From IMG/VR virus record IMGVR_UViG_2700989508_000029: DNA of 32,863 nt; one strand, written 5' to 3'. Positions 557 to 30,039 of this stretch are shown piece by piece. The notes under the pieces were generated by a model. That model saw only the letters and a list, made by a program, of their open reading frames with translations, was not told the origin of the DNA and searched no databases. Each line of letters opens with the position of its first letter. Within the stretch, counting starts at the first letter, position 1. The DNA comes from a virus (taxonomy: Duplodnaviria > Heunggongvirae > Uroviricota > Caudoviricetes). A program made the translations under genes and the position numbers.

Positions 557-611
557 AAAACACTCGATTAATCTCGTGTTAATGCCATCACCTACGACCA
601 TTACTAATTGA

Positions 612-1976: not shown

Positions 1977-1983
1977 ACGCAAT

Positions 1984-2015
1984 AAAGAGGCTTCAACATA
2001 ATTGGTAGCCTCTTT
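1984..2015. terminator. Bidirectional rho-independent terminator between convergent int and tail genes
   Basis: AAAGAGGCT-N14-AGCCTCTTT hairpin with T-rich sequence on both strands. Confidence 0.6.
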
Positions 2016-2056
2016 TATAATTACATCGTTACAGAGCGTTTTAGAGGCATTTACGG

Positions 2057-2770
2057 CTATTCCTGTTTAAAGGCAGGAGTAATAGTGTCTTCACCTTCAC
2101 TACTTGATTTTTCAGTGTTAACACGTTTTTTCATATTAGCCCCAATGTTCTTAGATGGCTGTGTTTTGAGAGCTACAGTGTTTACAGTGCCATAAGAAAC
2201 TAATCTGATTTGTTCAAAGCTAAGATCAAATACCAGAGATTCGCTTGCCTCTTCTGTGTATTCGATGCCTGTTAAAACAACGTTCTCAAAAGTTTTATTT
2301 TCTGTAACAAGAAGAAAAGGCTGTCTACTGTCCATAATCTGATTCAGGTAATCAATAGCTAATGATCTTCTGTTCCCGTTCACCCCTGCACTCTTTAACA
2401 AGCCAGGATCGCTTTTAATCGGTGTTTCAGTGATCCTTCCTTTAAGAGAAAACTTATTGTTTTTAATTTGAACGTGATCAGACACAGTAGCACCATTTTC
2501 TACGGGGTAGCTTGTAACATCTGCCGAACGTCTCACGTTCACATCGTCAACACTATCAAAGGCCAGTGCCATATAATTTTCATAAACGTCATTGCCAGAA
2601 GATGCCAAGCCACTGGTAACAATAGCAAATCCATTTTCGCCTTTTGTTGTATTAGCTTTGCTATTTTCGTTTTTTGTAGAGTTTATATCTTGTTCTGCTT
2701 TGTAAACAGCCTGAACGTGTTGTTCTGGAGTATTTGCTGCACGTATGGTTAAAATCCCGGCGGTCGCCAT
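2057..2770 (-). CDS. Phage tail/baseplate protein with Dit-like N-terminal domain (237 aa)
   Basis: The segment VTSYPVENGATVSDHVQ...LKGRITE...AIDYLNQIM...LVTE..FENVVLTGIEY...LVFDLSFEQIRLV matches the pattern I associate with Dit-like/baseplate proteins encoded just after tape-measure genes. It lies directly downstream of the TMP-like ORF. Confidence 0.45.
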   Translation of the reverse strand: MATAGILTIRAANTPEQHVQAVYKAEQDINSTKNENSKANTTKGENGFAIVTSGLASSGNDVYENYMALAFDSVDDVNVRRSADVTSYPVENGATVSDHVQIKNNKFSLKGRITETPIKSDPGLLKSAGVNGNRRSLAIDYLNQIMDSRQPFLLVTENKTFENVVLTGIEYTEEASESLVFDLSFEQIRLVSYGTVNTVALKTQPSKNIGANMKKRVNTEKSSSEGEDTITPAFKQE

Positions 2771-2804
2771 AATAATAATTTTCCTTGTAATGTTATGGCG
2801 GGAA

Positions 2805-4634: not shown

Positions 4635-4648
4635 TTAAAATCCCCTTA

Positions 4649-4852
4649 TTAATCATTTTTATCACCTTCTTTACTTAAGAAATGGTGTAGAGCCTGATCA
4701 ATACTCTCGTTTAATCTGAACATACGGGCTTTTACTCCTTCATATGGAACATCTAGGAGAGAACAGAGATATTTCAGATTTAACAAGCCTCTAGAATCAT
4801 TAGCATCTAAATGTACGTGTACACCATTTTTTGATTTCAAAATCACTTCCAT
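4649..4852 (-). CDS. Hypothetical small protein (67 aa) between capsid and tape-measure genes
   Basis: ORF with an SD (gagaggtgatt) upstream, in an operon with the TMP-like gene. No recognisable motif. Confidence 0.45.
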   Translation of the reverse strand: MEVILKSKNGVHVHLDANDSRGLLNLKYLCSLLDVPYEGVKARMFRLNESIDQALHHFLSKEGDKND

Positions 4853-4874
4853 ATTTTAATCACCTCTCAAAATT

Positions 4875-4918
4875 TAAAAAAATAAAAAAAAAGGCGAAGC
4901 GTGAATACACGCCACGCC
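4875..4918 (-). terminator. Strong rho-independent terminator/attenuator immediately after the major capsid gene
   Basis: On the minus strand, a GGCGTGGCGTG-TATT-CACGCTTCGCC hairpin is followed by a T9AT7 run. Confidence 0.65.
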
Positions 4919-4936
4919 TCTATTACACGTTAAATA

Positions 4937-5965
4937 TTATTTAACAGTGATTTGAACGGAGAAGCCTACACCGTGGTTTACAACCATCTGGCTATTCTCT
5001 GTAACAACGTTAACAGCATCACCACGAGAAGATTCATAGCTATAGCTATACACCTCAGCAGGAGCGGCATTGATCAGTTCAAAAGTGCTGGAAGCAGCCC
5101 CGTAGATGTTCTGATATACATTAGAGCCTTTAGCAAACTTCGGAATCGCAACCGCATCAGAAGTCATATGTGCAAGGTGTAGCGGATCTACCAGTTTAAC
5201 AACATCAATGTTAGTTCCTGGGATAGTGAACGCTGTCACCCCTGGCAGCAGGTCACGACGCTGATACACAACGTTCCCCTCTTCCAGTGGGCTTACATAC
5301 TGGAATGCGTTTGCCATACCAGCAGAGAATCGAATTGCGGAGAAGGCTTCAGGTTTACAGAAAACAACAATACGCTCTACAGCAGACGCCTGGCTTTGTG
5401 CTTTCTCGATAATGTCAGTAGCAATCTGATCAAATTCTTTAAAAATCTTCGTGGTGTCAGTGCTGGAAGCGTTCACAGTGGCTTTCATAGCTGATACGTT
5501 AAACAGCTTGCCCCATTCGATAAGAACATCATCAGTTTTCGGTGTATAAGTTTTGCCCGAGAACAAAGAAGCAGCCAATACGCTCTCTTTTGTACGCTGA
5601 TACGCTACGTGGTGTTTAGCGATATATTCCGCATAAATATCAGTGAGTGTTTCCTGGAAATCAGTGCCAGGTTTACGTTTGCCTTGAACATCAGAAGGAC
5701 GGATCACATCTTCACGCAGGAAGTAAGGGATCTCGATCAGCCATTCTTTACCTTGTTCTCGCTTAGTAACATTGTGTTCAGAACTAAAACGGCTTGTCTC
5801 TTTGTTAAAGAGAGATTCGTTGCTTTCGACAAGCTGGGAAACAGCTACTTTATGAGATGTAACCCCTACAGAATCCGTAAAATCAAGAGTAGAGAGCAGG
5901 AAGTTACGCGTGCTGTGTGTCTGGAACAGAGGGATCAAATCAACGTAATCATTGCCTAGAATCAT
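4937..5965 (-). CDS. Major capsid protein, lambda gpE-like (Phage_cap_E-type), 342 aa
   Basis: Its length is close to lambda gpE (341 aa). The family-like segment is IPYFLREDVIRPSDVQGKRKPGT...YQRTKESVLAASLFSGK...LIEWGKLF. It is directly preceded by a decoration-like gene, as in the lambda D-E order. Confidence 0.65.
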   Translation of the reverse strand: MILGNDYVDLIPLFQTHSTRNFLLSTLDFTDSVGVTSHKVAVSQLVESNESLFNKETSRFSSEHNVTKREQGKEWLIEIPYFLREDVIRPSDVQGKRKPGTDFQETLTDIYAEYIAKHHVAYQRTKESVLAASLFSGKTYTPKTDDVLIEWGKLFNVSAMKATVNASSTDTTKIFKEFDQIATDIIEKAQSQASAVERIVVFCKPEAFSAIRFSAGMANAFQYVSPLEEGNVVYQRRDLLPGVTAFTIPGTNIDVVKLVDPLHLAHMTSDAVAIPKFAKGSNVYQNIYGAASSTFELINAAPAEVYSYSYESSRGDAVNVVTENSQMVVNHGVGFSVQITVK

Positions 5966-5983
5966 TTATTATTATTCCTTTTA

Positions 5984-6346
5984 TTAAGAAGTGAAAACAG
6001 AATGGAACCCTTCAAGCTGGAAGCCTTTTTTAATTAATGCTGTTTTTGCTGCTTCACTTACAGCATTCAGCGCATCAGCTTTGATGCATACAAGCCCAGC
6101 ATTGCTACGTAAAACATCTACAGGTTTGTTTTCTCCAGCCGTTACAAATTCACTCATAACAACATAGATATCATCTCCTGATACATATTTAGCGCCAGTG
6201 CTGGTGATCAAGTCGCCGCATTCAACATCAGCAGGAAGAGAAGCAAAAACCTTGCTTTCTACAGAGGCAAACGGATCAGTACAATAACTTACAATATCTG
6301 TGAAAGTCTTTCGAACTGGAAACAGAGTGTCTAAATCAATAATCAT
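5984..6346 (-). CDS. Head decoration protein-like (lambda gpD-position), 120 aa
   Basis: The size and the position immediately upstream of the E-like capsid gene fit. Its ATG overlaps the stop of the upstream ORF (ATGA). Confidence 0.45.
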   Translation of the reverse strand: MIIDLDTLFPVRKTFTDIVSYCTDPFASVESKVFASLPADVECGDLITSTGAKYVSGDDIYVVMSEFVTAGENKPVDVLRSNAGLVCIKADALNAVSEAAKTALIKKGFQLEGFHSVFTS

Positions 6347-6555
6347 TTAGTAATCTCCTTAGCTTTTAATTTGATTAATTCATTAAGGGAAGGTGTAGAC
6401 GGAGAAGAAGGAGAAAAATATTTTTCAACACATCTTTCTACTTCTTCTACAGAACACCCAGCGTATTTAGCTACCATTTCGGTAATTTGTGGATTTATTT
6501 TCAGCATTTCATCTTTATACTTGATGATTTGCTCTTTATCATTTAAGAACAACAT
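6343..6555 (-). CDS. Hypothetical protein (70 aa), first gene of the structural operon
   Basis: Translationally coupled (ATGA) to the decoration-like gene. No motif recognised. Confidence 0.45.
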   Translation of the reverse strand: MLFLNDKEQIIKYKDEMLKINPQITEMVAKYAGCSVEEVERCVEKYFSPSSPSTPSLNELIKLKAKEITK

Positions 6556-6617
6556 TTATATAAACCTTGTTACCTTGTTTAAAGTAAGAAATACAACTTT
6601 TAAGTTGCATAACGGGC

Positions 6618-6649
6618 AAAATAAAAGGCAGCATTTAGAGCCGCCTTTT
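6618..6649 (-). terminator. Rho-independent terminator separating the early and structural operons
   Basis: On the minus strand, the GGCGGC-UCUAAAU-GCUGCC hairpin has a G-U pair that is valid only on that strand, followed by UUUUAUUUU. Confidence 0.55.
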
Positions 6650-6678
6650 ATTAACTTGTACCTATGTAATTACCCTAT

Positions 6679-6708
6679 GTTATGCATACTCCAAGATGTA
6701 TGCATAAC
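6679..6708. promoter_or_regulatory. Operator-like perfect inverted repeat GTTATGCATA-N10-TATGCATAAC upstream of the structural operon
   Basis: 10-bp perfect arms. A third half-site, TTGCATAAC, lies at 6605-6613, nearer the operon start. Confidence 0.45.
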
Positions 6709-6904
6709 AAAGGAAAAAAGAGGTAATAATGACACAGTATTTACTTAAGGAGGAGAAGCGGGGAGCGGAGATTTTACTCCCCTTTAACGACAAGAAGAAT
6801 TTTTAATATCGAACCAATAAAGGAAAAATAATCACCCCATATAATTATATTAACATATAATAGATGGAATGTCAAGATATTTTACAACTTTTTTGTTGCT
6901 TTTT

Positions 6905-7267
6905 TTATTCTTCTGTGATAGTGCCTAAGCGTTGAGCGAGTTCGACAAGTCCATCTCCCACATAGCGAACATCAGATTCGATATCTTCTATCCAGTTTGA
7001 TAGCTCCCATATCTGATCGGCTGTCAGGTATGCGTTTTCGCGCTTACAGAGCATCTCTACACGCTTAGAGAGGTGCTCAAAGGCATTCACAGCTAAATCC
7101 CAGTGTTTAAACGCCTCATTTAGTGACGCTGGTGTGTTTTCTTTGTATGCTTCAAGTTCAGCGCGGTTTAAAGGCAGAAGGTAATCATCCTCATAATAAT
7201 TAATTAGTGAGTAAATTGTGTCATACGTGTTTTTGTTCATATTAAAAGTCTCCATAGTGATCAGCAT
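6905..7267 (-). CDS. Hypothetical protein (up to 120 aa; likely start at 7240 or 7255)
   Basis: The ORF is adjacent to the upstream gene's stop at 7242-7244. A GGAGA SD precedes the ATG at 7240. Confidence 0.45.
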   Translation of the reverse strand: MLITMETFNMNKNTYDTIYSLINYYEDDYLLPLNRAELEAYKENTPASLNEAFKHWDLAVNAFEHLSKRVEMLCKRENAYLTADQIWELSNWIEDIESDVRYVGDGLVELAQRLGTITEE

Positions 7268-7652
7268 TATCTAGAATCTGGAAGTCTGGAACTAAGTTAT
7301 TTAGGCCATTTGTGGCGAGATAACCAACGTAGTGGTTATAGTCTTCAAATCCTAAAATCTGGTATTTGCGTAAATCAGAGCTATCAACGATATACTCTTT
7401 TCTTTTTCTAGGTTTCCAGAATACGCCAGGTGTTGAAGATAAGATTTCTTGTAAGGCGTTAAATTCATCTCCGCAAGGCACAGAGGGAGAATGTTCTATG
7501 ATCTCTGTTTTCCATTCGCCAGGGGCGCTATTTTGCTTGGTGAGCGTAACTAGCTCTTTAAAGTCTTTGCGTCTTAGAATAGATTTAGGTTTACTTAGAA
7601 GAGAAGCTGAATCCCCGATTTTCTTAACAACGTTGTTTTTTCTTTTTGCCAT
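7242..7652 (-). CDS. Hypothetical protein with basic N-terminus (136 aa)
   Basis: ATG at 7652 with an AAGGAAA SD. The N-terminus is MAKRKNNVVKK. No family recognised. Confidence 0.45.
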   Translation of the reverse strand: MAKRKNNVVKKIGDSASLLSKPKSILRRKDFKELVTLTKQNSAPGEWKTEIIEHSPSVPCGDEFNALQEILSSTPGVFWKPRKRKEYIVDSSDLRKYQILGFEDYNHYVGYLATNGLNNLVPDFQILDNADHYGDF

Positions 7653-7784
7653 TATTTACTTTTCCTTTTCTTTTAAAGGAAAACACCCCGAAGTATGTTT
7701 CTAACGTGAGAAAGAACAATAACCAATACATAGCTACTATCATAATAATGTTTTCCTTTTATATTTTAATTACATAGAGAGATT

Positions 7785-8063
7785 TTAGAGAGTGGAATAG
7801 ATGAATTCTATTTCTTTATCTAGTCTTTTGAGATTGAATGTAGAGAAAGATAATTCTTTAATTTCTATAACACCGAAGTTTGATAGCTGTTTCAGCCAGA
7901 ATTTTAAACCATCTTCAGAGCACCCTGCTCGATGTAACACATCGCTATATTTTAGCGGTGTTGGCTTTCCTTTATAGAGGTAAGCAAGTGTTTCGTAGAT
8001 GCGTTTTCCTGTGTCGTTACACTGAATTCTGTCTACTTGATTTTTTACTAAATATTGAATCAT
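7785..8063 (-). CDS. Small putative winged-helix DNA-binding protein (92 aa)
   Basis: A strong SD (AAGGAGGG) precedes the ATG at 8063. The sequence looks wHTH-like. Confidence 0.45.
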   Translation of the reverse strand: MIQYLVKNQVDRIQCNDTGKRIYETLAYLYKGKPTPLKYSDVLHRAGCSEDGLKFWLKQLSNFGVIEIKELSFSTFNLKRLDKEIEFIYSTL

Positions 8064-8074
8064 AACCCTCCTTA

Positions 8075-8767
8075 TTAAAATGGAATATCAAAGTCTTCGT
8101 ATACTTTGGGATGTTTCTTAGCAAAATATGCCTCAATACCATTTGGTAGCTTTAACCTGTGCTTATAGGCTAACGATGTTGCAAATTCTATAAATGATGC
8201 TCCTCCTGTTCTAGTATTCTTCTGCTTGATAATAAGAGAGGCAAAATTCTTTAACACATCCTCCTCATTATCATTAGCTACCTTTTCACTTGATGAAACA
8301 GGTGTTTCTTCCGTCTCCCACGGTAAAGGCGTATCCCAATCATCATCAAGAACATCAAAAGAAGGCTGTTTATGGCCTTTAGGTTGTTCCTGTGCTTCTT
8401 CTGCCTCAGAAAGATCAGAGAGTGATGATTCTCCTGGGGGAGTAATATGTGCATCTGTGAGAGGGAGAGCATTGTAAATCAAAGATGAAATATACGGATC
8501 AGGATGTGGGGATGTTTCTAATAATCCCATCTCTTTAAGATCGTTTATCTTACGTTTAATTGTTGACGCTGAAGACTTAAAAATCTTAGCTAATGTTTCG
8601 TGACTTTCATAACAATTAAGGTTGTTTTCCTGATAACTAAGGAATCGAAAATAAAGCACAATATGTAATAGATCTAAATCTTTTCCTTGAGGGAATTTAT
8701 CAGAATAAATCTTTGATACATTATCAAACGTGTCATAGTGTTTTGTAAAAGTTAGTTGGTTAATCAT
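8075..8767 (-). CDS. HTH replication-initiator-like protein ending in an SSB C-terminal-tip-like motif (230 aa from MINQL)
   Basis: AAGGAG SD 7 nt before the ATG at 8767. The N-terminal wHTH-like segment is ESHETLAKIFKSSASTIKRKINDLKEMGLLE. An acidic linker follows, and the C-terminus YEDFDIPF resembles the E. coli SSB tip DFDDDIPF. Confidence 0.5.
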   Translation of the reverse strand: MINQLTFTKHYDTFDNVSKIYSDKFPQGKDLDLLHIVLYFRFLSYQENNLNCYESHETLAKIFKSSASTIKRKINDLKEMGLLETSPHPDPYISSLIYNALPLTDAHITPPGESSLSDLSEAEEAQEQPKGHKQPSFDVLDDDWDTPLPWETEETPVSSSEKVANDNEEDVLKNFASLIIKQKNTRTGGASFIEFATSLAYKHRLKLPNGIEAYFAKKHPKVYEDFDIPF

Positions 8768-8820
8768 TAAAAATCTCCTTGATGTAATCACGCTCTATGG
8801 CGCTACTATGGTGATAAAAA

Positions 8821-9010: not shown

Positions 9011-9199
9011 TTACTCTGTTTCAGATTCTTTTTCATTTTTTCTTAGTTCATCAATAATCTTGAGTGCTTCATTGAAGCAAGCTGCTCGCTCTGGATAACC
9101 TCGACTCCTTGCCATATTACGATTCATTACTACTTGGTGGCGTGTAAGCTCACCTTTTTTAAATGCCTGGACGACGTGCTCAGGTGTAAACCATTTCAT
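9011..9199 (-). CDS. Hypothetical small protein (62 aa), first gene of the early operon
   Basis: AAGGAG SD before the ATG at 9199. Confidence 0.45.
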   Translation of the reverse strand: MKWFTPEHVVQAFKKGELTRHQVVMNRNMARSRGYPERAACFNEALKIIDELRKNEKESETE

Positions 9200-9310
9200 A
9201 AAAAACTCCTTATTCAGTTAAAAGAAAAAACACCTTGCAAGCCTGACGGCTTCAAAGTGCATTGATTTTGATTATTTAGAGAAGAATGTTTTTCTGTCCC
9301 TCTAATACCT

Positions 9311-9339
9311 ATTATTACATATAAAGAAACATTTGTCAA
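9311..9339 (-). promoter_or_regulatory. Candidate sigma70 early promoter of the AT-rich element
   Basis: On the minus strand, TTGACA-N16/17-TAATAAT lies about 110 nt upstream of the first early ORF. Confidence 0.4.
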
Positions 9340-9855
9340 TACCTTTTCATAAAAAATCTGATCTTTTTCATGCACTTACATTTTTTCTTAGCAATTCGTG
9401 CTCTCCTATGTAGTGCTATTCTTCCTTATTGTCTAAAACGCTCTAAAACGCGTTCTAACGAGATTTTGATAAAAGCAATACATTCCCTTATCTAATGGCT
9501 GTTTAGCTCGCCAGAGGCTTATTTAAGTGGCTTATTTTGTATTTGTTAGATGATGATAGATATAAAACAGAGAGTCACTTTATAAAACGCTCTGTAAAGC
9601 CCTGTAGTGAGTTTATTATATGTAGGCAATGCGTTTCCATTCCCTACCCTGCTTAATGTTGTTAGAGAAGCATTTAGACCCCTTATTTTTAATTACCTAA
9701 AGTATCCTCTATACATCTCTGTTATGAAACACCTCTGAATCCTTCATAAAACACATTATGACGCAAAGAACACTTTTCTAAGGTGATTCCCTTCCTGAAT
9801 GCTGTTTCTTGCGTCAGAGAGCTACACAGAGCTTATAAAGATATTATTAATAATA

Positions 9856-9917
9856 AAGTAGATAAAGTAAGTAAGATAAGTAAGTAAGATAACTAAGATA
9901 GATAAGATTAATAAGAT
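9856..9917. repeat. Degenerate TAAGATA/TAAGTAAG tandem microrepeat
   Basis: gataaagtaagtaagataagtaagtaagataactaagatagataagattaataagat. Confidence 0.6.
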
Positions 9918-9961
9918 CAGAATTCTCTTTCGGTGTCGCCTCTGGCTTTTCCACCGAAAAC

Positions 9962-10228
9962 AATTACACGACTACAGAATGTAGGAAGTGAAATTGTATT
10001 GAGGCTTAGTGAAATTACACGAGGAAAGCAGAGTGTAATTGAGCTTTAGCCGCTCTCTTCGAGTAATTACACAACTACAGAGAATAACGAGAGTTATTAA
10101 ATGTAGGAAGTGGAATTAAGAGGTAGAGAGTTACACATAAGCAATCAGTATGATTGGTTAGGTGATTACTCTTCTGCGCACAGCGCAATAGTATTTCTTC
10201 GTGGGCGTTACCGCCACGATAGTTACAC
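9962..10228. repeat. Cluster of (A)ATTACAC sites (about 6 copies, one inverted)
   Basis: AATTACAC occurs at 9962, 10013 and 10065, and GTGTAATT (inverted) at 10033. TTACAC/GTTACAC occur at 10131 and 10222. The larger unit AATTACACnACTACAGA...TGTAGGAAGTGnAATT is repeated at 9962-9994 and 10065-10118. Confidence 0.6.
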
Positions 10229-10350
10229 GAAGAAAGTAACGCTTTGCTTTCGGTGTGAGCGGAACGGGCCAGCCACGAAGCCCGAAAGGTAGCGGAGTAA
10301 GGCTGCTTGCCAGAGAGTGAAGCTAACGCCGGAAGGCAAAAGATCATATA

Positions 10351-10501
10351 TATATAGTATAAAGAATATTATTATGATCTAATTAATAATCTAATATAGT
10401 TTTATTAATAGTCTTATTGTAGTTCACAGTGACCTACCCCCTAGCTCACTATGACCTACCCCCTAGGTCACAGTGACCTATATAGTATAAAGAATATTAT
10501 T
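10351..10501. repeat. 23-bp perfect direct repeats flanking TGACCTACCCCCTAG repeats and a 15-bp palindrome
   Basis: TATATAGTATAAAGAATATTATT occurs at 10351-10373 and 10479-10501. TGACCTACCCCCTAG occurs at 10430-10444 and 10452-10466. The palindrome AGGTCAC-A-GTGACCT lies at 10465-10479. Confidence 0.7.
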
Positions 10502-10526
10502 TATATTATTTAATTATAGTATTGGT

Positions 10527-10626
10527 GGAACTCATTTCCTAGGTAGGTAGGAACTCATTTCCTAAGTAGGTAGGAAACCACTTCCTAGGTTACTTCCTAA
10601 ATAGATCGGAAATCATTTCCTAGGTG
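10527..10626. repeat. Iteron array: 4-5 copies of GGAAnnCAyTTCCTArGT (internal GGAA-N5-TTCC dyad), ~23-bp period
   Basis: Copies start at 10527, 10550, 10573 and 10608, with a partial copy at about 10593. Confidence 0.7.
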
Positions 10627-10641
10627 TTATTTATTCTTATC

Positions 10642-10700
10642 GGGTATCAGTTTTGATAGGGGTATCAGACTTGATAGGGGTAACAGAATTCTGTGGGGGT
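10642..10700. repeat. Iteron array: 3 copies of GGGGTAwCAGnnTTGATA, 18-bp period
   Basis: Copies at 10642-10658, 10659-10676 and 10677-10694, then a GGGGGTAG partial copy. Confidence 0.65.
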
Positions 10701-10866
10701 AGTTCACTATGACCTACCCCTAGCTCACTGTGAGCTACCGTTACATTCAATCATCTTCCGATGTGTAATATCGTTACATTCAATAATTAGTCTATGTAAC
10801 ATATCGTTACTACCAACTTTCTTACAAAGAGCATTTCAGATAGCTGAATGTAACCTCTCGTTACAT
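10701..10866. repeat. Third TGACCTACCCCTAG copy, AGCTCAC-T-GTGAGCT palindrome, and CGTTACAT/ATGTAAC sites
   Basis: TGACCTACCCCTAG is at 10710-10723 and the palindrome at 10722-10736. CGTTACATTCAAT occurs at 10739 and 10772. ATGTAAC occurs at 10794 and 10848, and CGTTAC(AT) at 10805 and 10859. Confidence 0.6.
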
Positions 10867-11669
10867 CCATTTGTCACATAGCACTCTGTGTAATGCCTTT
10901 CTATGTGTGTGCCATAATCCCCCCTATATTCCCTGTGTAAATCATAGAATATCCCTAACTTATTCCTGTGTAATTCCATACTAAAAATTCAATGAAAAAA
11001 GTAGCTTAAAAGTTCAATTCTTACTTTCTTCACTTTTACATCACTTTCGCAAATCCTTGTGTAATGCGGCTTACAGAGCACCATCAGAAATTGTTGGCTA
11101 AAAATTGTTCTGCTTGTTTCTTAATGAGTTTTCTTGTTTGTGCAAATTTTAAAATTTATTTTGTTTTTACAGCCTTATTTCGTGTAATGCGTGGCATAGC
11201 AAGCCCTTTTCTTGTGTTGTCAAGACATTTGGCAACGTTCAAACATCTGTTTAGAAATGCCAAATTGTTGATCTAACAAATAAACCTGTATAAACAGAAC
11301 ACCATTTAATCTATTCCCCTGTGTAATCCACTACATCACACGATAAAAACAAAAAACTTTTAATTATATTTCATAGCACACAAAAGTCAACAGAAGCCCT
11401 CTCGTGCTCCTACGTAAAAAATCCATCACTTTTCCCCTGATACATCAACTCAAGGCGTTCTATGTGTTCCTTAGTGCATATTACGATTATTATGTTAAAT
11501 GGATTTTGGCCTATATTTTGACCTGCACCCGCATAAACACTGGTTTCATCGCTTACAGCCCTTGTGAGACGTGGTGCTGTTTCTAGCATCTGATCCGACA
11601 TAAAACCGATCATTCTCGTGTTTAGTGAAAGTTTAGTGAGAGACATTACAGAAAGGCTTTCTGTGTAAT
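10762..11669. repeat. Dispersed (C)TGTGTAAT sites (at least 8 copies), inverse orientation of the 9962-10228 ATTACAC cluster
   Basis: Copies at 10762, 10886, 10933, 10966, 11058, 11182, 11319 and 11661. One reversed copy (ACTACACAGG, next to GTTACAT) lies at about 12331-12347. Confidence 0.6.
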
Positions 11670-12137
11670 GATTTAATAGGTAAAAACGATGTTGATTACG
11701 CAAGAAAATTCCTTGCTGATATTTGGGGATTCTGGATTTTCCAGATCGGGGGGCGCTGAAAATCGCGTTAAGCACTTCTCGCAATCTAGCCATAAGGGAA
11801 GGGATATAGGTATTTAGATGTATTTATAGCTAATTTATAGCTATTTATTTTTTATTTACCTTTATTAAAAATAACCTTATAAATCAATAAGATACATAAT
11901 TATCTGTTTATATTCTAATCAATTAAATCAAGTTTAATACCCTTAAATAACCTGAAAATAGCCTTAAATACCCCAATAATTAATTTTAAGGTTTTCCGTG
12001 TTCTCTTCTGCATTATGAAAATGCAAAATAAGGCACAAAACAAGCTCACATACGCATTAAACACACATCACCTATACATCCCTATGCCAAGCAATGAAAA
12101 CAGCGTTAGAATGCGTCCTGTTGCGTTCTGGAGATTT

Positions 12138-12296
12138 TCAGAAATCCTCTCTAAGCCATTTCAACTCACTAAGGAGTTTTCTTTCTTCGTTCTCTCGTTG
12201 CTTTCGCTCTAGCCAGGCTTTTCCCTCTGGCGTAGACAGGAACTTACGAGCGTGAATCTTGCGGTTATTACGTTTGATAGCTGCAATGTTTTTCAT
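12138..12296 (-). CDS. Unlisted small basic ORF (52 aa, MKNIAAIKRNNRKIHARKFLSTPEGKAWLERKQRENEERKLLSELKWLREDF)
   Basis: I translated this by hand. It has an ATG with an AGAGG SD about 8 nt upstream, and GTTACAT / CTGTGTAGT-type sites lie just upstream. It is below the 60-aa threshold of the ORF track. Confidence 0.35.
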   Translation of the reverse strand: MKNIAAIKRNNRKIHARKFLSTPEGKAWLERKQRENEERKLLSELKWLREDF

Positions 12297-12479
12297 CGTG
12301 TGCCTCTGTATTCATATGAAAATTAACAAGTTACATACTACACAGGGAGACTACGCATAAAACACAATACAAGTAAAGATACATTTTCAAGACAATAGGA
12401 GCCATAAAGCGCCTTTGATGGTTATACCAAAAAATAAGCGCCGTAGGCGTATCCACTAAAAAGGGCTTTTTCACAAAAG

Positions 12480-12842
12480 CTATGAAGTCTTAGCAGTTCT
12501 TCTCTTATCAGGCACCCGTTGTACTCCGGTGGACGAAACCGTGCTAGAGCTTGATTCTTTCCCGATCAAGTTAGGTTTTGAAGAGGTGGGCTTTAATCCA
12601 CTATGCACTTAAAACTCTTCCCATCATTTAGCCTGTTTATCCTCTGCAACGTCTCACGACGTGTAGCATCATTGGACACCGCGCCAGGTGTGGAACATCT
12701 TGCTAAGAGTTTTGGTAGAAGGTTTAGAGACGGTGGCACGTCTTCCAGCTTCAAAGGAACTTGTTACGAGGTTGAGCCTGGGAACTACTCGCCCATACGT
12801 GTTACACTACCAAAGCCCATAACAACGTATAGGCGTTTGTAA
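12480..12842 (+). ncRNA. Candidate structured non-coding RNA (hairpin cluster) next to the inter-element att
   Basis: A locally GC-enriched block in AT-rich DNA holds seven consecutive hairpins: 12548-12572, 12581-12620, 12649-12662, 12676-12691, 12727-12744, 12745-12781 and 12790-12836. Three G-T appositions (12549/12571, 12727/12744, 12750/12776) are wobble-compatible only on the + strand. Confidence 0.35.
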
Positions 12843-12898
12843 GTGATAACAGAAGATACAATTTCTTAGAGAAGTTAAGCTAAGTTATTGATTTTCTT

Positions 12899-12916
12899 AA
12901 TGGTGCGATAATAGGA
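12899..12916. repeat. Degenerate internal att copy (junction between the two elements)
   Basis: AATGGTG-CGATAATAGGA differs from AATGGTGCCGATAATAGGA by a 1-nt deletion. Its flanks (TTGATTTT.. / ..AAAACA) also resemble those of the 536-556 copy. Confidence 0.6.
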
Positions 12917-12978
12917 ACAAAACAAACAATAAAAATACATTGATATATAAAGACATTTTCCCATTACATCTTTGTAGA

Positions 12979-16121: not shown

Positions 16122-16736
16122 GTGAGCAGAAAAGATACTAAAGAATTGCTAACTATCTGCATGGTGTACTTTTCAATTTATTTTTGTGCATACATGATAG
16201 TCCCAGATGAGTTTGAACATGGCAGTATTATTTATTCCATAACATTCTATTTTTTAGAGCTAACACCAATTTTGGCTATCCTTTTGGCAATACATATTTA
16301 TTTTTCCTTAAAAAAAGAATCGACTAATTGGGAGAAGGTATGGAGAGACAGAGGATTTCTAACATCACCTAAAGATGATGCATATGAGAGTGATTTTTCT
16401 GACTTTATAACAAACTACTACTCCAGCGAACAATTCAAAAATAGACTGTCTGATGTTTGGGAAACAGCAATGTATTCCATAGGGATTATATTATTGATAC
16501 TTACTGGTATTGCTCAATATGTTTTTAACATTGACTTATCATTAAATCCTGAAAATTTAATATCGCCATTGATTTTTGGTGAGATATTGATCTTCTCATT
16601 CGGAATTTTCTTGAGTGTTGTTCTCTGCTCATTATGCAAACTACTGACTAACAGGTATCCAGGTGAAGCAAGGAGAGCAAGAAAGGCAAATCCATATTAT
16701 CTTTTATTTCCTAATGGAGACAGCAGAGATATCTAA
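16122..16736 (+). CDS. AT-rich 4-TM membrane protein (204 aa) at the position SieA occupies in P22
   Basis: GTG start with a strong SD (AAGGGGG). There are four hydrophobic helices. The gene converges on the end of the gp16-like gene. Confidence 0.6.
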   Translation: MSRKDTKELLTICMVYFSIYFCAYMIVPDEFEHGSIIYSITFYFLELTPILAILLAIHIYFSLKKESTNWEKVWRDRGFLTSPKDDAYESDFSDFITNYYSSEQFKNRLSDVWETAMYSIGIILLILTGIAQYVFNIDLSLNPENLISPLIFGEILIFSFGIFLSVVLCSLCKLLTNRYPGEARRARKANPYYLLFPNGDSRDI

Positions 16737-16754: not shown

Positions 16755-18860
16755 TTATTGAGCTTCTTTTTGTGATGCCTGTGCGACTCTGGTGAGCGAT
16801 TGTGTGACCGTACTGATCGCTCTGTCATATGCTGTGCTACCTTTTGGCGTATTTGCCAAACGTAACAAGGCATTTCGTATAACAGGGCTTTCGTATGCCT
16901 TCGCGGCTCCGCCTACGGCACCAGCAGCAGGAACAACAAACGCAGCCGTTTTTAGCATCCCCGCTAATACTGCTGCGTTTATGATGCCACCACCAACTAA
17001 CAATCCATAAAGCTGCTGACCATTTAAGTTTTGAACGTTCGCTTTTGCCGCGTGTCTTGTATCGTTGAGGTATTTAATAACGCCGTCCAGTTCCTTTCCA
17101 TGTACGCCTTTAAAGAAAGTTGCTGATTGCTTCCTGTTCCGGTGTAACGCATTAATAAACTTCTCAACACTGATATTTCCAGACGGATCAGTCGCCTTAT
17201 CTACAGCATTCTGAACTATGGCTGCTCGTGCGTTTTGCCTACCATTGTCATCCAGAAGCCTGTAAAGCTGAGAACGTTCTGATGGGCTTTGGCTAAAAAC
17301 GAGTTTTGTTACATCCTCAGGCGTGGCCTTGCCGCTGGCTATTGCCTTTTGAACGCGCGTTCTTCCCATCATGTCATTGAATTTAGACCATGAGCGATCA
17401 ACCCTTGCCATATTAATGGCTTCGTCTGCTCCAAGATTTTTGGCTACGGCTTTTTTCATATCCGCCGTATATGCCTTGTAGATAATATCGCTGGCTTTCT
17501 GGAGCGTATCTTTATCAACAGTGTCAGATGACGCCATAAACCGCTTTCGAAGATCGGTTCTGTTTTCCCTCGCCAGACGCAGGTCATTTGGTCCGCTGGT
17601 GATATCGTCTTTAAATTGCTGCAAGACTTTTACCGCGGCTCTATCCTGAGATTTACCCGGGCGGCTTAACACAGCAATCTGATTGTCGATAGCTTTTACC
17701 GTGTTTGAGAGATCGACAGGGGTATCCCCCATAGCGTCAATTATGCGGTTATATCGCTTTCCTGCTGCCTCAATGAATTTTTGTTGCCCTTTAGTCGCAG
17801 ATTCATAAAGCTGTTTATCAGAAATGCCACCCAGACCATCGCTAAATGTTCTGACTAAATTTTCTCGTGCTTGTTGTTGATTCAGCCGATTCTTACCGGT
17901 TCCAAAAAAAGGAACTCTTTCGCCTAATGTCTGAGCCTGACTCTGCATAAAGGTTTTATCTTTCAGCATGTCACTGGTCATTAACGGCAGATTTCTTTCC
18001 GATGCAAAGTCGACAGCAGCCTTTGCTTCAGGCGACATATCACCACGAACAGCCCTCGAAACCGCACTCGCTGTATTTTCCAGCCCCTTACCAATACCAC
18101 CAATGCCAGCAGAAATTACCGTTTGTAACGGATCAATATCTTCTCCACCAGCAAGGCTAGTGGCTCCCTGTAGTGCTAAATCTGTAGCTGCTGATTTTCC
18201 TATGGCACCAAGCACCGTTCCAGCCCTGCCCGCTGGTGTAAACGCCAGCGCATTAGCCAGAAACGATGCCACGTCTTGCGGCGATAAACCCGGCTTGTTC
18301 AGAGCATAATCACCGGATGGCAGGGAAACGATAGTGTTACCCTTCTCATCCTGCCTTAATTTCGCTCCCATGCTCTGAAGAATCTTTTCCTGAGATGCGT
18401 CAGAGCCGAAAAGTTGAGACCATCGAGCTTTTAGAGCATCCATGCTGAGTGAGGTTAACTCTGGGGCAAGGTCGACATTTTGCAGTCTCTCCATCTCTGG
18501 AGTCATTCGGCTTTCGCCTGTTATAGCATCGCGCATCGCAGCCCCAAGACTGGCTCCCTGTTCTGCTGAACGCTCAAGCCCCTCTCTTTGCTGAGTAGCT
18601 AACTTTGCATACCCTGACGCAAGAGAATTATCAGATGATGTATGTTGAATATTTTGAGTTGCTGATTGGGATCGGTCTATTTCATTCGTTGATGGTAGTG
18701 GATAGGCAGCATAAAAAGCCTGCTTAGCCTGCTCTACACTTTCTCCGGCTTGCGGGGCCACGACTTCATTGAAGTATTGCTCCTGAGCCTGCGCTTTTTG
18801 TTCTGGTGCTAACGCCTGATACTGTGGAGAGGCGATAACATCTTTCCATGCTTTAGCCAT
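16755..18860 (-). CDS. P22 gp16-like DNA ejection/transfer protein (701 aa)
   Basis: It is the third gene of a 225/473/701-aa series, which parallels P22 gp7/gp20/gp16 (about 229/471/609 aa) in order. Its ATG overlaps the upstream stop (TAATG). The N-terminus MAKAWKDVIASPQYQALAPEQKAQAQEQYF is typical of podovirus internal/ejection proteins. Confidence 0.6.
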   Translation of the reverse strand: MAKAWKDVIASPQYQALAPEQKAQAQEQYFNEVVAPQAGESVEQAKQAFYAAYPLPSTNEIDRSQSATQNIQHTSSDNSLASGYAKLATQQREGLERSAEQGASLGAAMRDAITGESRMTPEMERLQNVDLAPELTSLSMDALKARWSQLFGSDASQEKILQSMGAKLRQDEKGNTIVSLPSGDYALNKPGLSPQDVASFLANALAFTPAGRAGTVLGAIGKSAATDLALQGATSLAGGEDIDPLQTVISAGIGGIGKGLENTASAVSRAVRGDMSPEAKAAVDFASERNLPLMTSDMLKDKTFMQSQAQTLGERVPFFGTGKNRLNQQQARENLVRTFSDGLGGISDKQLYESATKGQQKFIEAAGKRYNRIIDAMGDTPVDLSNTVKAIDNQIAVLSRPGKSQDRAAVKVLQQFKDDITSGPNDLRLARENRTDLRKRFMASSDTVDKDTLQKASDIIYKAYTADMKKAVAKNLGADEAINMARVDRSWSKFNDMMGRTRVQKAIASGKATPEDVTKLVFSQSPSERSQLYRLLDDNGRQNARAAIVQNAVDKATDPSGNISVEKFINALHRNRKQSATFFKGVHGKELDGVIKYLNDTRHAAKANVQNLNGQQLYGLLVGGGIINAAVLAGMLKTAAFVVPAAGAVGGAAKAYESPVIRNALLRLANTPKGSTAYDRAISTVTQSLTRVAQASQKEAQ

Positions 18861-20281
18861 TAATCACCCCATAGTGAAGAAAAGTTACTGCTGGCTGCTG
18901 GCTGTGATACCTGCTCAGATTGCGGCAATGTCTGCGACGAAGAAGAAGTTCCTCTGTCAACTGCTGAAATAACCCGCAAAGCATCATAAGCTCGACCAGA
19001 AGCAGCTTTCAGCGAATTGAACTGGTTTTCCATCTTCCGGCGCTTGGTATCAATGGTTTTTGTGGAGTCGCCAGGCTGAGGGAAATACATTTGATAATAT
19101 TTTGACATTTCAGCAGGTACGATGGCTGCCCCTGTTTCCTGACGGAGTATTGCCATTATTGCGTCATTAGCATTAACAACGTATTGCTGTTCTGTTGGGC
19201 TGAGCGTTAAGTTAGCCAGCGTCCCATTACCCAAAGCATTATTAATGATCGCCACTCGCTGTGGGCTAAGCTGGTCTTTCAGTGTATCTATTGAATCAAG
19301 AGCATCCCTAACCCTGTATGCAAATCCAGCAGCTTTTTTAGCCCCTTCTGGCGACTTTTCCATGATCTTTTGGGCTGTTGGCAAAGCTATTGGACGAAAC
19401 CCATCTCCAGATATTGGCTGGTTTAGTTTTCCCTGCTCTTCACTTCCGTCTGTGTAGTATTTTGTGACAGTGCCATCATCGTTTTCTCTAACACTCATTA
19501 ATTTTTTGGCGTTTGTATTAATTCCAGCCGCTGCCGCAAATGCCGCCGCCCCCTCTGGATCCGCCTTTAACATTTGAGCGTACTGATTGTAATTCTGCAT
19601 TGCTGCTGTTGGTGCATATGCTGACGTTAACGCATTTGCTCGGCTAATATCCTGCCCTCTCGCCTGAAGTGCTTCGCCAGCCTGATTGCTGCGGATTGTC
19701 TCTGCCAACTTGCCACGCTCAATATCCCGACCTTCCATTTGATCTTTGATATCGAAATACTTCTCATGACCGAGAGAAAACAGTGCCATACTACCAGCAA
19801 GCCGCTGGAACCCCTGTGGATCATTAACATGCATTTCGGCAACAGACTCAGGAGAAATTCCCAAGCGACGCATTTCATCTTCGTTATCTGCTATGAATTT
19901 TCCAAATGCCCCAGTTCCGAGCGAAGATGCGATTTGAGCACTAGTCGCAAGATGACCAATAGAATTTCTCTGGTCGTCATCAATAAAGCCCATCCCTTTC
20001 TGAACGCTTTCAAATTCTTCTGGATACTCAGAAATAAGACTGCGCATTTTGTTTCTGTCTCCAGACTCAAAAGCCCCGGCATATGCTTTCTGAAACTCTG
20101 CTTTACGCTGTTGTTGACGTGCCTGCTGATTAATCTCAGCAACGCCTCTTAGCCCCTGTAGCGCCATTAAACCTACGTTTGGCTGCTGCTGATACTGCAC
20201 AGGCTGAGGAACGGAAGAACGAGGAGCATTATCATTTTGCGGTGCCATGCTAGGCAGCCCGCCAAGTTGCCATGTCGCCAT
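18860..20281 (-). CDS. P22 gp20-like DNA ejection/transfer protein (473 aa)
   Basis: Size and position fit within the gp7-gp20-gp16 order. It is Q-rich, and both its start and its stop overlap the neighbouring genes. Confidence 0.6.
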   Translation of the reverse strand: MATWQLGGLPSMAPQNDNAPRSSVPQPVQYQQQPNVGLMALQGLRGVAEINQQARQQQRKAEFQKAYAGAFESGDRNKMRSLISEYPEEFESVQKGMGFIDDDQRNSIGHLATSAQIASSLGTGAFGKFIADNEDEMRRLGISPESVAEMHVNDPQGFQRLAGSMALFSLGHEKYFDIKDQMEGRDIERGKLAETIRSNQAGEALQARGQDISRANALTSAYAPTAAMQNYNQYAQMLKADPEGAAAFAAAAGINTNAKKLMSVRENDDGTVTKYYTDGSEEQGKLNQPISGDGFRPIALPTAQKIMEKSPEGAKKAAGFAYRVRDALDSIDTLKDQLSPQRVAIINNALGNGTLANLTLSPTEQQYVVNANDAIMAILRQETGAAIVPAEMSKYYQMYFPQPGDSTKTIDTKRRKMENQFNSLKAASGRAYDALRVISAVDRGTSSSSQTLPQSEQVSQPAASSNFSSLWGD

Positions 20282-20958
20282 TAGAATCCAAGCCCCCCAA
20301 CAAGACCAATAAGCCCACCACCAATAGCGCCGGCCGCAGTTCCTATTCCAGGAACAACGGAACCAAGTTGCGCACCCGCTAAAGCGCCTGATGCTGCCCC
20401 ACCAATACCACGCGCAAGACTGGATGGCTGCTGCGCCTGACCTGCACGAATAGCGCCAAGCCCCTGCAAGAGTTGTCCGGTATTATTGGCGTAGTTTTGC
20501 CCTGCCGTTGCCTGCCCTGATGCCGCATTCATCCCGACATTTAGCAGGTTTCCATAATTTTGCATTTGCCCACTAAGCCAATTGTTATAAAGCATGGGCG
20601 CAATGGAAGATAACTGGTTACTGGTAGCTGTTGAGCCAAGCCCCCCGGTAGCTTCTGCTGAGACAAGGTTCTGATAACGGGCCTGATCTGCCTGTGTTTT
20701 ATATAAACCAGAACCAAAGAAATCATTCGCTGCTTTATTCTGCCCTTCCAGAGTCATCAGTCCTTGTAGTTGTTGTAAAGCAGGCAATCCGACTTCTGCA
20801 TACGGCTTGAGATTATTCATCACCGTATTCCACTGCTCGCGCTGCAAATCAATTGCCTGCTGCTGGGCCTTCGCCTGAGCTTTAGAGGCACCACCATCAC
20901 CGCCTTTTTCGTATACGGCACGATTGAGATGTTTATGAGCTATATGGGTAATTAACAT
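20281..20958 (-). CDS. P22 gp7-like DNA ejection/transfer protein (225 aa)
   Basis: The N-terminus ...RAVYEKGGDGGASKAQAKAQQQA... resembles the P22 gp7 N-terminus I recall (..YPEKGGKGG..). The body is Q/G/N-rich with a Gly-rich hydrophobic C-terminus. Confidence 0.6.
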   Translation of the reverse strand: MLITHIAHKHLNRAVYEKGGDGGASKAQAKAQQQAIDLQREQWNTVMNNLKPYAEVGLPALQQLQGLMTLEGQNKAANDFFGSGLYKTQADQARYQNLVSAEATGGLGSTATSNQLSSIAPMLYNNWLSGQMQNYGNLLNVGMNAASGQATAGQNYANNTGQLLQGLGAIRAGQAQQPSSLARGIGGAASGALAGAQLGSVVPGIGTAAGAIGGGLIGLVGGLGF

Positions 20959-21413
20959 TCGCTGAATTCCTTATATTGTTGCCGAGTTAACTGATAAAGC
21001 GTTACGCCGACGGGTTTACCACATCTGATATAAGCATCATCAAGGTGACCAACACGGGTAGCGCCAAGCAAACGGATAATTGCCCGTCCGTATTTCGTGG
21101 TGTCAGGAACCATAGTGATGCTGTTAAGGAATGGTGAGTTTTCGAGAAGCCATTTGCAGAATAATCGATGTCCTTGCAGTGCATATTCACCACGGAATCC
21201 GGGGTCGTACACCGCATGGCATTCAACAACGCTATGCCAGAAGCTACGCACTTCATGAACGCCAGCCAGCACCAATCCTTCGTAGATGCCGAGATATACC
21301 GCATCAGGCTTGATGTAGTACGTGTGCCCCGGCTCAACAATATTTTCGGTATTGCCTGGCTCGTTAAGAAAGGCCTGTAATCGCACAGGGTTATCAATAA
21401 ATTTTAGTTCCAT
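20952..21413 (-). CDS. P22 gp14-like (DUF2824-type) protein (153 aa)
   Basis: It lies immediately upstream of the gp7-like gene with a 7-nt overlap, and its size matches gp14. The call is by position and size only. Confidence 0.45.
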   Translation of the reverse strand: MELKFIDNPVRLQAFLNEPGNTENIVEPGHTYYIKPDAVYLGIYEGLVLAGVHEVRSFWHSVVECHAVYDPGFRGEYALQGHRLFCKWLLENSPFLNSITMVPDTTKYGRAIIRLLGATRVGHLDDAYIRCGKPVGVTLYQLTRQQYKEFSEC

Positions 21414-21429
21414 GCGATGCCATCCATTT

Positions 21430-21591
21430 TCACATACAGCCTGCCAGCGCCTTATCTATTAACCCTCGTGCAATTTCATGCAGAGTTGGCGCTACTCCAA
21501 TTCCTGATTTTTTACGCTGCTCTTCCTGAATTTTCTTTATCGCTTCCATTTGCTTCTCACTTATCAATACCGGCTTTACTGAAATAGCCAT
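21430..21591 (-). CDS. Unlisted small RHH (Arc/Mnt/CopG-like) protein (53 aa, MAISVKPVLISEKQMEAIKKIQEEQRKKSGIGVAPTLHEIARGLIDKALAGCM)
   Basis: I translated this by hand. A strong SD (AAGGGGG) lies 5 nt before the ATG, and the sequence fits a beta-alpha-alpha pattern. It is the first gene behind the LexA-box promoter. Confidence 0.45.
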   Translation of the reverse strand: MAISVKPVLISEKQMEAIKKIQEEQRKKSGIGVAPTLHEIARGLIDKALAGCM

Positions 21592-21604
21592 AACGCCCCC
21601 TTAG

Positions 21605-21630
21605 AACTGTATAAAACAACAGTTATTATA
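21605..21630 (-). promoter_or_regulatory. TATAAT -10 element abutting a LexA-type SOS box (AACTGT-TGTTTTAT-ACAGTT)
   Basis: The minus strand reads TATAAT-AACTGTTGTTTTATACAGTT. The CTGT-N8-ACAG core is perfect, about 15 nt upstream of the SD of the RHH gene. Confidence 0.5.
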
Positions 21631-21685
21631 GTTTCACAAATCGCAATATTCATCATAGTAATTGCAAAATATGAAACAAATAGCA

Positions 21686-21719
21686 CAAAAAAATGCCACC
21701 GCTCAGTAGCTGGTGGCAT
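21686..21719 (-). terminator. Rho-independent terminator insulating the alpha operon/iteron region from the ejection-protein operon
   Basis: On the minus strand, an ATGCCACC-N11-GGTGGCAT hairpin is followed by T7. Confidence 0.6.
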
Positions 21720-29896: not shown

Positions 29897-30039
29897 ACGT
29901 AGAAGGCTCAATACACCTTCGTTTATAAAAGAGCGATTGCCCTTCTCCAGGGCTAACTGTTAAATAGCAATCCTCTGTGAGTTTTTATCAATCTACTCCC
30001 CTATACTTTAGTAAACCTCTGTATACTTGTCCAGTTGTT

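Follow-up and report, generated by a model that had tools for sequence, protein, structure and literature searches.

A probable LexA operator at the promoter of an ejection-protein operon in an EcCIMP1-type phage-inducible chromosomal island

We propose that a phage-inducible chromosomal island (PICI) of the EcCIMP1 type has placed its ejection-protein genes under the host LexA repressor. The site in question is a 20-nt dyad on the minus strand of the viral record IMGVR_UViG_2700989508_000029 (32,863 nt; "the window" below means this whole stretch of DNA, which is what was analysed), and it directly adjoins the -10 hexamer of a predicted private promoter of the operon, which we call P_E. The sequence features set out here make it likely that the dyad is a functional LexA operator on P_E, and the satellite would probably switch its ejection genes on by the same SOS signal that wakes its helper prophage. 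The features of the promoter region and operon are as follows.

21685-21710, minus strand: intrinsic terminator after the primase gene, an inverted repeat with its stem at 21710-21695 followed by a T-run (terminator scan)
21631-21677, minus strand: second, larger imperfect dyad around the -35, with arms at 21677-21661 and 21647-21631 (repeat search)
21648-21653, minus strand: candidate -35 ATGAAT, read by eye, matching TTGACA at three of six positions, with a 17-bp spacer
21625-21630, minus strand: -10 hexamer TATAAT, directly adjoining the box and (nearly) invariant across related loci
21605-21624, minus strand: predicted LexA operator (SOS box), the 20-mer AACTGTTGTTTTATACAGTT, heterology index 8.19, arms kept across genera
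21622-21607, minus strand: CTGT-N8-ACAG core of the box, a 16-bp palindrome with an AT-rich spacer
21596-21602, minus strand: Shine-Dalgarno sequence AAGGGGG, 4 nt 5' of the ATG
21430-21591, minus strand: gene of a 53-aa protein, first in the operon (WP_001018524.1; ORF list and RefSeq annotation)
20952-21413, minus strand: gp14 homologue (DUF2824; Pfam PF11039, E 4e-61; phrog_651)
20281-20958, minus strand: gp7-type ejection protein (Pfam P22_gp7, E 6.6e-73)
18860-20281, minus strand: gp20-type ejection protein (Pfam Inj_translocase, E 4.5e-58)
16755-18860, minus strand: gp16-type DNA transfer (ejection) protein of 701 aa, last gene of the operon (phrog_770 'DNA transfer protein', E 3e-161)

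The first-pass annotation of this DNA gave the minus-strand sequence exactly, as TATAAT (21630-21625) followed by AACTGTTGTTTTATACAGTT (21624-21605), and the perfect core with AT-rich spacer that it described is present. Continuing 3' on the minus strand, the box is followed by ctAAGGGGGcgtt and then by the ATG at 21591, so that 13 nt separate box and start codon. A pattern scan finds CTGT-N8-ACAG only once in the 32.9-kb window. The bare core pattern is not significant by itself, because at least one copy occurs in 34 of 100 shuffles of the window; the full 20-mer was therefore scored by the heterology index (HI) instead.

The Lewis HI matrix was rebuilt by regression on the 140 sequence/HI pairs of PSOSP Table S1 (PMC12527982). 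HI is additive over positions, the residual of the regression was 1e-5, and the rebuilt matrix gives back the published HIs of 2.77, 4.31, 4.65, 6.11, 8.32 and 8.80, which we take to be those of the PSOSP boxes for umuDC, recA, sulA, uvrB, lexA box 2 and uvrD, respectively. The 20-mer at P_E scores 8.19, with non-consensus bases at positions 8 (G) and 9 (T). Among the E. coli K-12 entries of PSOSP Table S1, those with an HI up to about 9.6 all belong, presumably, to known SOS genes. The score lies within the LexA-binding range (threshold below about 12.6-13.9); Mean Shift clustering separates low-HI from high-HI sites near 13.6-13.9 (PMC12527982). The heterology-index check, proposed beforehand, did not return a poor value: an HI of 8.19 predicts an intermediate LexA affinity, like that of lexA box 2 or uvrD. 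By exact calculation at the base composition of the window, the probability of an HI of 8.2 or below is 3e-7 per position, and sites of this quality are expected 0.0099 times per window, 0.00024 times in the 584-nt intergenic spacer and about 1.4 times per 4.6-Mb genome. As an internal control, CTGT-N8-ACAG was matched elsewhere in the first five loci only at the known dinD box, with HI 3.3 and 4.9.

Two weaker LexA-like sites occur elsewhere in the window. One, TGCTGGATTTGCATACAGGG at 19312-19331 (HI 10.47), falls within the gp20-type coding sequence and persists in some island copies (L001, L004); the other, AACTGGACAAGTATACAGAG at 30017-30036 (HI 12.9), begins 4 nt past the integrase stop codon. 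At those scores 0.06 and 0.24 sites are expected per window, respectively, and the 30017-30036 site in particular could be a chance match.

Read in the direction of transcription, the region runs from the terminator through the perfect -10, the box and the Shine-Dalgarno sequence to the ATG. Relative to the perfect, conserved -10, and taking the start site that it predicts, the box spans -6 to about +14. For the Salmonella SOS genes nlhH, umuD, yebG, dinI and sulA the spacing from box to start is 13-21 nt (PMC8072944); the 13-nt gap at P_E matches this spacing, and we count it in favor of a LexA operator. The terminator lies 3' of the primase gene, and the ejection operon should therefore form a separate transcription unit; an equivalent hairpin with a T-run occurs at the Citrobacter loci and at the metagenomic loci L020/L021. 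A consensus promoter scan called no promoter here, the -10 being perfect and the best -35 matching at only three of six positions. The pattern (A/G)TGA(A/T)(T/C) at the same spacing recurs in the Serratia, Citrobacter and Klebsiella loci. The larger dyad around the -35 has arms of 17 nt each that are 76% complementary and 13 nt apart; none of the nine aligned loci (four genera) departs from its TTTCA...TGAAA elements, not even those that lack a LexA box. As a candidate operator it might be bound by the 53-aa protein or by some other regulator of the island, and it probably adds a second, element-specific layer of control. We considered whether the LexA-like dyad might be read as an RNA hairpin or terminator; the predicted start site, near 21618, falls inside the dyad, so that only one arm would be transcribed, and that reading was rejected. 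The earlier suggestion of a LexA-type operator overlapping the promoter of the ejection operon thus draws support from the HI of 8.19, the chance estimate, the position at -6 to about +14 and the conservation of the arms across genera described below.

The DNA of the window is E. coli DNA, and the island that carries P_E sits at tRNA-Thr, adjoining proA. On the minus strand its genes are, in order, integrase, AlpA, AntA, Ash, Toprim/DUF927 primase, terminator, the promoter with its box, the 53-aa gene and the ejection genes; beyond these lie a convergent SieA-like ORF and then Abi_2 and PerC genes. Pfam matches within it comprise integrase domains, Phage_AlpA, AntA, Phage_ASH, Toprim/DUF927 and PerC. 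It is thus a tRNA-sited element of the about 15-20 kb class that encodes integrase, AlpA, primase and PerC, appears free of capsid, tail and lysis genes, and is colinear with EcCIMP1, a PICI that resides in E. coli MP1 and for whose mobilisation the P22-like phage Kapi1 serves as helper (Pick, Stadel and Raivio 2025, PMC11773190). The two share the tRNA-Thr/proA site, an identical 53-aa protein, an identical promoter and box sequence, and the gene order int, alpA, antA, ash, primase, 53-aa gene, DUF2824, gp7-like, gp20-like, gp16-like, PerC. They differ in the gp16-type protein, which has 701 aa in the window and 906 aa with a lytic-transglycosylase domain in EcCIMP1 (L005), and in the Abi_2 gene, which the window has in addition. 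The first-pass annotation had called the element P4-like. Primases and integrases of the sort that the island encodes do occur in P4-like elements; the P4 capsid-hijacking and regulatory genes sid, delta and psu are absent from the RefSeq annotation of an identical island and from the Pfam scans of the tested ORFs. Colinearity with EcCIMP1 (PMC11773190) instead leads us to class the element, on its sequence, as a PICI of the EcCIMP1 type whose helper would be P22-like, and not as a P4 satellite in the classical sense, its P4-like kind of integrase notwithstanding.

At 95% identity or above, the segment is found in 499 of the 5426 complete E. coli genomes (about 9%), among them ETEC H10407 and O26 strains. 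A common E. coli variant (L002, L003, L004, about 9190-12940) is without the gp14 and gp7 homologues and has a 57-aa version of the 53-aa-type gene followed directly by the gp20- and gp16-type genes; some copies of this variant lie between yicC and dinD, not at tRNA-Thr.

Apparently beyond the PICI, at about 600-8800 of the window, there is a second element, which holds capsid and Dit genes; these genes appear to belong to this neighboring element and not to the PICI. Its features are as follows.

612-1976, plus strand: second tyrosine integrase
2057-2770: Dit-like tail protein
2805-4634: 609-aa protein without a Pfam match
4937-5965: Phage_cap_E major capsid protein (Pfam)

The ejection-protein cargo claimed for the operon is borne out by Pfam, PHROG and tblastn, which give, behind the 53-aa gene, a DUF2824/gp14 homologue, a P22_gp7 protein, an Inj_translocase/gp20 protein and a gp16-type protein. 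The genes are tightly packed, overlapping or abutting. By tblastn, the gp16-type protein of the window is 31-67% identical to the gp16-type proteins of P22-like phages (among them Sf6, ST64T and N7), its closest phage relatives being the Escherichia phages N7 and HZ41 at only 67% identity. The last ejection gene of EcCIMP1, Serratia and Citrobacter has a lytic-transglycosylase (SLT) domain (906 aa in EcCIMP1, L005 12598-15318), unlike that of the window.

The 53-aa protein that heads the operon had been described as a ribbon-helix-helix (RHH) protein. This identification is a putative one. The AlphaFold model (pLDDT 78) does show the extended-helix-helix layout, with an extended stretch at residues 1-11 and helices at 12-29 and 37-52, and an RHH assignment is plausible on this model. 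Sequence-profile searches of Pfam, PHROG and PDB gave no match, and a Foldseek search of the model against PDB gave nothing significant (no match with E below 3.9), even though the best TM-scores, 0.59-0.61, include the ParD RHH structure 7ycw_D. Among 50,697 phage records tblastn likewise found no match to the 53-aa protein, and the module therefore does not come from a sequenced P22-like phage.

Conservation of the box among the E. coli copies is uninformative, because the whole region is 92-100% identical; one E. coli variant of the box begins GACTGT and has an HI of 9.53. Loci in other genera were reached through homologues of the 53-aa protein, and the sequences that follow the -10 at these loci are as follows.

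Serratia: TACTGTGTCTATATACAGTT, HI 6.32; cargo of gp20 and gp16 types
Citrobacter: AGCTGTATCGTTATACAGTG, HI 11.02; cargo of gp14, gp7, gp20 and gp16 types
Leclercia: GGCTGTATCGTTATACAGTG, HI 12.36; known here from the box and the same 53-aa-type gene
Metagenomic L020/L021: TACTGTATCGTTATCCAGTG, HI 10.38; cargo of gp14, gp7, gp20 and gp16 types
Metagenomic L024: GACTGTATCGTTATACAGTG, HI 11.3; DUF2824 cargo, then the contig end
K. michiganensis L009-L013, and L023: GACTGTATAAATATCAGG, no box, a 1-nt deletion giving CTG-N9-CAG; tape-measure-like, injection-transglycosylase-like or baseplate-hub-like cargo
Metagenomic L022: AATTGTATCGATATAGAGTG, no box, both triplets being mutated (CTG to TTG and CAG to GAG); T7-type internal virion proteins

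The arms CTGT/(A/C)CAG are kept while the spacers drift (TGTTTTAT, GTCTATAT, ATCGTTAT) in E. coli, Escherichia sp., Serratia, Citrobacter, Leclercia and two metagenomic lineages. Across the lineages with an intact box, five of the eight spacer positions vary, the arms are invariant, and HI ranges from 6.3 to 12.4, the boxes of Citrobacter (11.0) and Leclercia (12.4) being near the binding limit. The box is intact in all eight lineages counted as having P22-type cargo and broken in all four with other cargo, which retain the -10, the upstream dyad and the 53-aa gene; on both sides these lineages are few and not phylogenetically independent. Kept arms, drifting spacers and loss of the box with other cargo together argue for selection on LexA binding, and the breakage of the box where the 53-aa gene is retained argues against the box being that protein's own operator.

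Cassettes headed by the 53-aa gene and carrying other genome-delivery proteins were seen at several of these loci. In L022 (65-2392) the homologue of the 53-aa gene heads a cassette with T7-type internal virion proteins (Pfam T7_gp14, phrog_418). At L009 (6001-8065), L012 (6001-7202) and L023 (1579-2156) the cargo comprises a 605-aa protein like injection transglycosylases and tape-measure proteins, a baseplate-hub-like protein and a tape-measure-like fragment. None of these four loci has kept an intact LexA box.

Three other explanations of the dyad have to be weighed. It might be the operator of a regulator encoded by the element itself, most obviously an autorepressing 53-aa protein of the putative RHH type, with the likeness to LexA sites being coincidental. 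RHH proteins are often encoded first in their operons and bind dyads in their own promoters, the AlphaFold model of the 53-aa protein has the extended-helix-helix layout, and an operator of this kind would show conserved arms as well. Yet four lineages have lost the dyad while retaining the promoter and the 53-aa gene (with the same N-terminal VKPVL), and the dyad around the -35, with its TTTCA...TGAAA elements kept in every lineage, is the better candidate for an element-specific operator. A coincidental match over the full 20 nt at an HI of 8.2 would moreover have the probability of about 3e-7 per position given above, and the RHH fold is itself putative, with no profile match and no significant Foldseek match. 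We regard this explanation as quite improbable. A match arising by chance, or a relic without a regulatory role, is more improbable still and we give it very little credence. The frequency of the bare core among the shuffles would allow for it, and the E. coli region is too similar to reveal selection; against this, the full matrix predicts 0.01 such sites per window, the spacer has a single promoter-like element and the site coincides exactly with its -10/+1, and the arms are kept around a variable spacer in five genera, the box being lost specifically where the cargo differs.

The remaining alternative accepts that LexA binds and makes it a minor brake, the operon depending mainly on an activator (the island's AlpA or one from the helper phage), so that damage in a cell without a helper would not express the cassette. 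It gains some weight from the weak -35 and from the conserved second dyad around it, and from the finding that induction of alpA depends on the helper and not on SOS as such in both EcCIMP1 (PMC11773190) and EcCICFT073 (PMC6092414). Against it, the strong terminator isolates the operon from the AlpA-driven genes upstream, and no AlpA site was identified at P_E. Many sigma-70 promoters, besides, make do with a perfect TATAAT, a 17-bp spacer and a partial -35. This account seems to us unlikely. Even so, given the weak -35 and the negative promoter scan, P_E may need an activator, and loss of LexA might not by itself suffice.

Under the reading that we prefer, in which the dyad is a LexA operator that governs P_E, a LexA dimer in an undamaged cell would occupy about -6 to +14, just 3' of TATAAT. 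Its footprint there would cover the predicted start site, and open-complex formation would therefore be blocked. DNA damage would yield activated RecA, LexA would cleave itself, and P_E would fire, so that the 53-aa protein and the homologues of gp14, gp7, gp20 and gp16 would be made. What the DNA shows is the sequence with its score, its place relative to the -10, the genes of the operon and the pattern of conservation; that LexA occupies the site, where transcription starts, that SOS induces the operon and what becomes of its proteins we infer from it. P22-like helper prophages are SOS-induced through RecA-stimulated cleavage of their repressor, and P22-like procapsids load ejection proteins during assembly. 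As the helper prophage responds to SOS too, the satellite's ejection proteins would appear while helper procapsids are being built.

These proteins might be loaded into the helper procapsids, might serve to evade exclusion of the SieA type, or might have to do with the superinfection immunity of EcCIMP1. A 204-aa ORF at 16122-16736 of the window (plus strand) runs convergently towards the last gene of the ejection operon and matches, weakly, the PHROG family 'superinfection exclusion SieA-like' (phrog_7745, E 4.4e-4). In P22, sieA and gene 16 are neighbors; gp16 and gp20 are the proteins to which SieA resistance maps (PMC10461980). The SieA-like neighbor suggests that particles with satellite ejection proteins could inject into cells closed to the helper, those two proteins being where resistance to such exclusion maps. 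EcCIMP1 is reported to add superinfection immunity against its helper (PMC11773190), and the cassette itself may alternatively underlie that phenotype. A broader reading would join these observations, taking the 53-aa-headed cassette as a swappable set of satellite genome-delivery proteins matched to the type of helper, with only the P22-matched version wired to LexA and its ejection proteins loaded into helper procapsids at induction; we offer it tentatively and consider it doubtful as a whole.

What has been reported for EcCIMP1 bears on how such a switch would fit into the island. Its alpA promoter is induced by the helper, and mitomycin C alone, without the helper, does not induce it; circularisation was detected only with the helper present, and the requirement of a helper for excision and transfer was demonstrated with Kapi1, for EcCIMP1 itself (all PMC11773190). 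Since alpA is not induced by mitomycin C without the helper, the island as a whole is not simply SOS-driven. The same study treats genes _017 to _019, which follow the primase gene, as possible packaging genes, and in its account of EcCIMP1 mentions neither LexA nor ejection (PMC11773190). RNA-seq of E. coli MP1 placed EcCIMP1 gene(s) and colicin-plasmid gene(s), unnamed in the text, among the few horizontally acquired genes whose expression rises in Kapi1 lysogens whatever the medium (PMC12922286). As colicin operons are LexA-repressed (PMC2994835), their up-regulation together with EcCIMP1 gene(s) is suggestive.

The P_E box has the CTGT-N8-ACAG core and AT-rich spacer of the canonical E. 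coli SOS boxes (dinD AACTGTATATAAATACAGTT, uvrB AACTGTTTTTTTATCCAGTA, yebG, lexA box 2, uvrD); its AACTGT...ACAGTT flanks are identical to those of dinD, and its HI falls between those of yebG (7.04) and uvrD (8.80). It differs from these boxes in its location, a mobile island and not the core SOS regulon. Temperate phages have LexA-repressed antirepressor or induction genes, such as tum of coliphage 186 and the Gifsy-type antirepressors. These and the colicin operons resemble P_E in that a mobile element ties one promoter to the host LexA and so reads the SOS state, whereas their targets are switch genes or toxins and the target of P_E is a set of virion-internal DNA-delivery proteins.

The parallel with staphylococcal SaPIs drawn in the first-pass annotation is valid as an analogy. 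Operon I of the Staphylococcus aureus SaPIs is LexA-controlled (Ubeda et al. 2007 Mol Microbiol 65:41, as cited in PMC6092414), and the resemblance is that a satellite operon aimed at the virions of the helper answers to the SOS repressor of the host (at P_E, by prediction), so that the signal which induces the helper prophage switches it on too, independently of the satellite's master switch. The two have no sequence relationship: operon I has a Gram-positive host, another LexA motif and capsid-size/packaging cargo, and the P_E operon encodes DNA-ejection proteins. LexA control has been demonstrated for the SaPIs and is predicted from sequence for P_E. Gram-negative PICIs have been described as SOS-insensitive, answering helper-phage proteins through AlpA only (PMC6092414, PMC11773190), and in the literature on them that we found no LexA operator is reported. 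The P_E box is thus a probable new LexA target, and its operon a probable Gram-negative analogue of SaPI operon I. If this is correct, a direct LexA operator on a PICI operon would provide a second, helper-independent input, and the 'possible packaging genes' of EcCIMP1 would be re-labelled as a predicted LexA-gated set of ejection proteins, which bears both on island transfer and on the unexplained superinfection-immunity phenotype of EcCIMP1.

A scan of 185,579 species genomes, in which sampling at the species level is thin, for TGAAACTATAAT-NN-CTGT-N8-ACAG found three loci only, two of them homologous islands and the third at a umuD-like gene of Colwellia. This outcome agrees, like the dinD matches, with the scoring of the P_E box. 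In the Colwellia sp. MAG (L018, 7971-8000), an unrelated marine bacterium, the 12 nt TGAAACTATAAT are followed by the LexA box AACTGTACATTTATACAGGC (HI 7.92), 5' of the umuD-like gene; umuD is a canonical SOS gene, and its box is placed as at P_E, although the likeness to P_E is probably a coincidence of the promoter and box consensus sequences.
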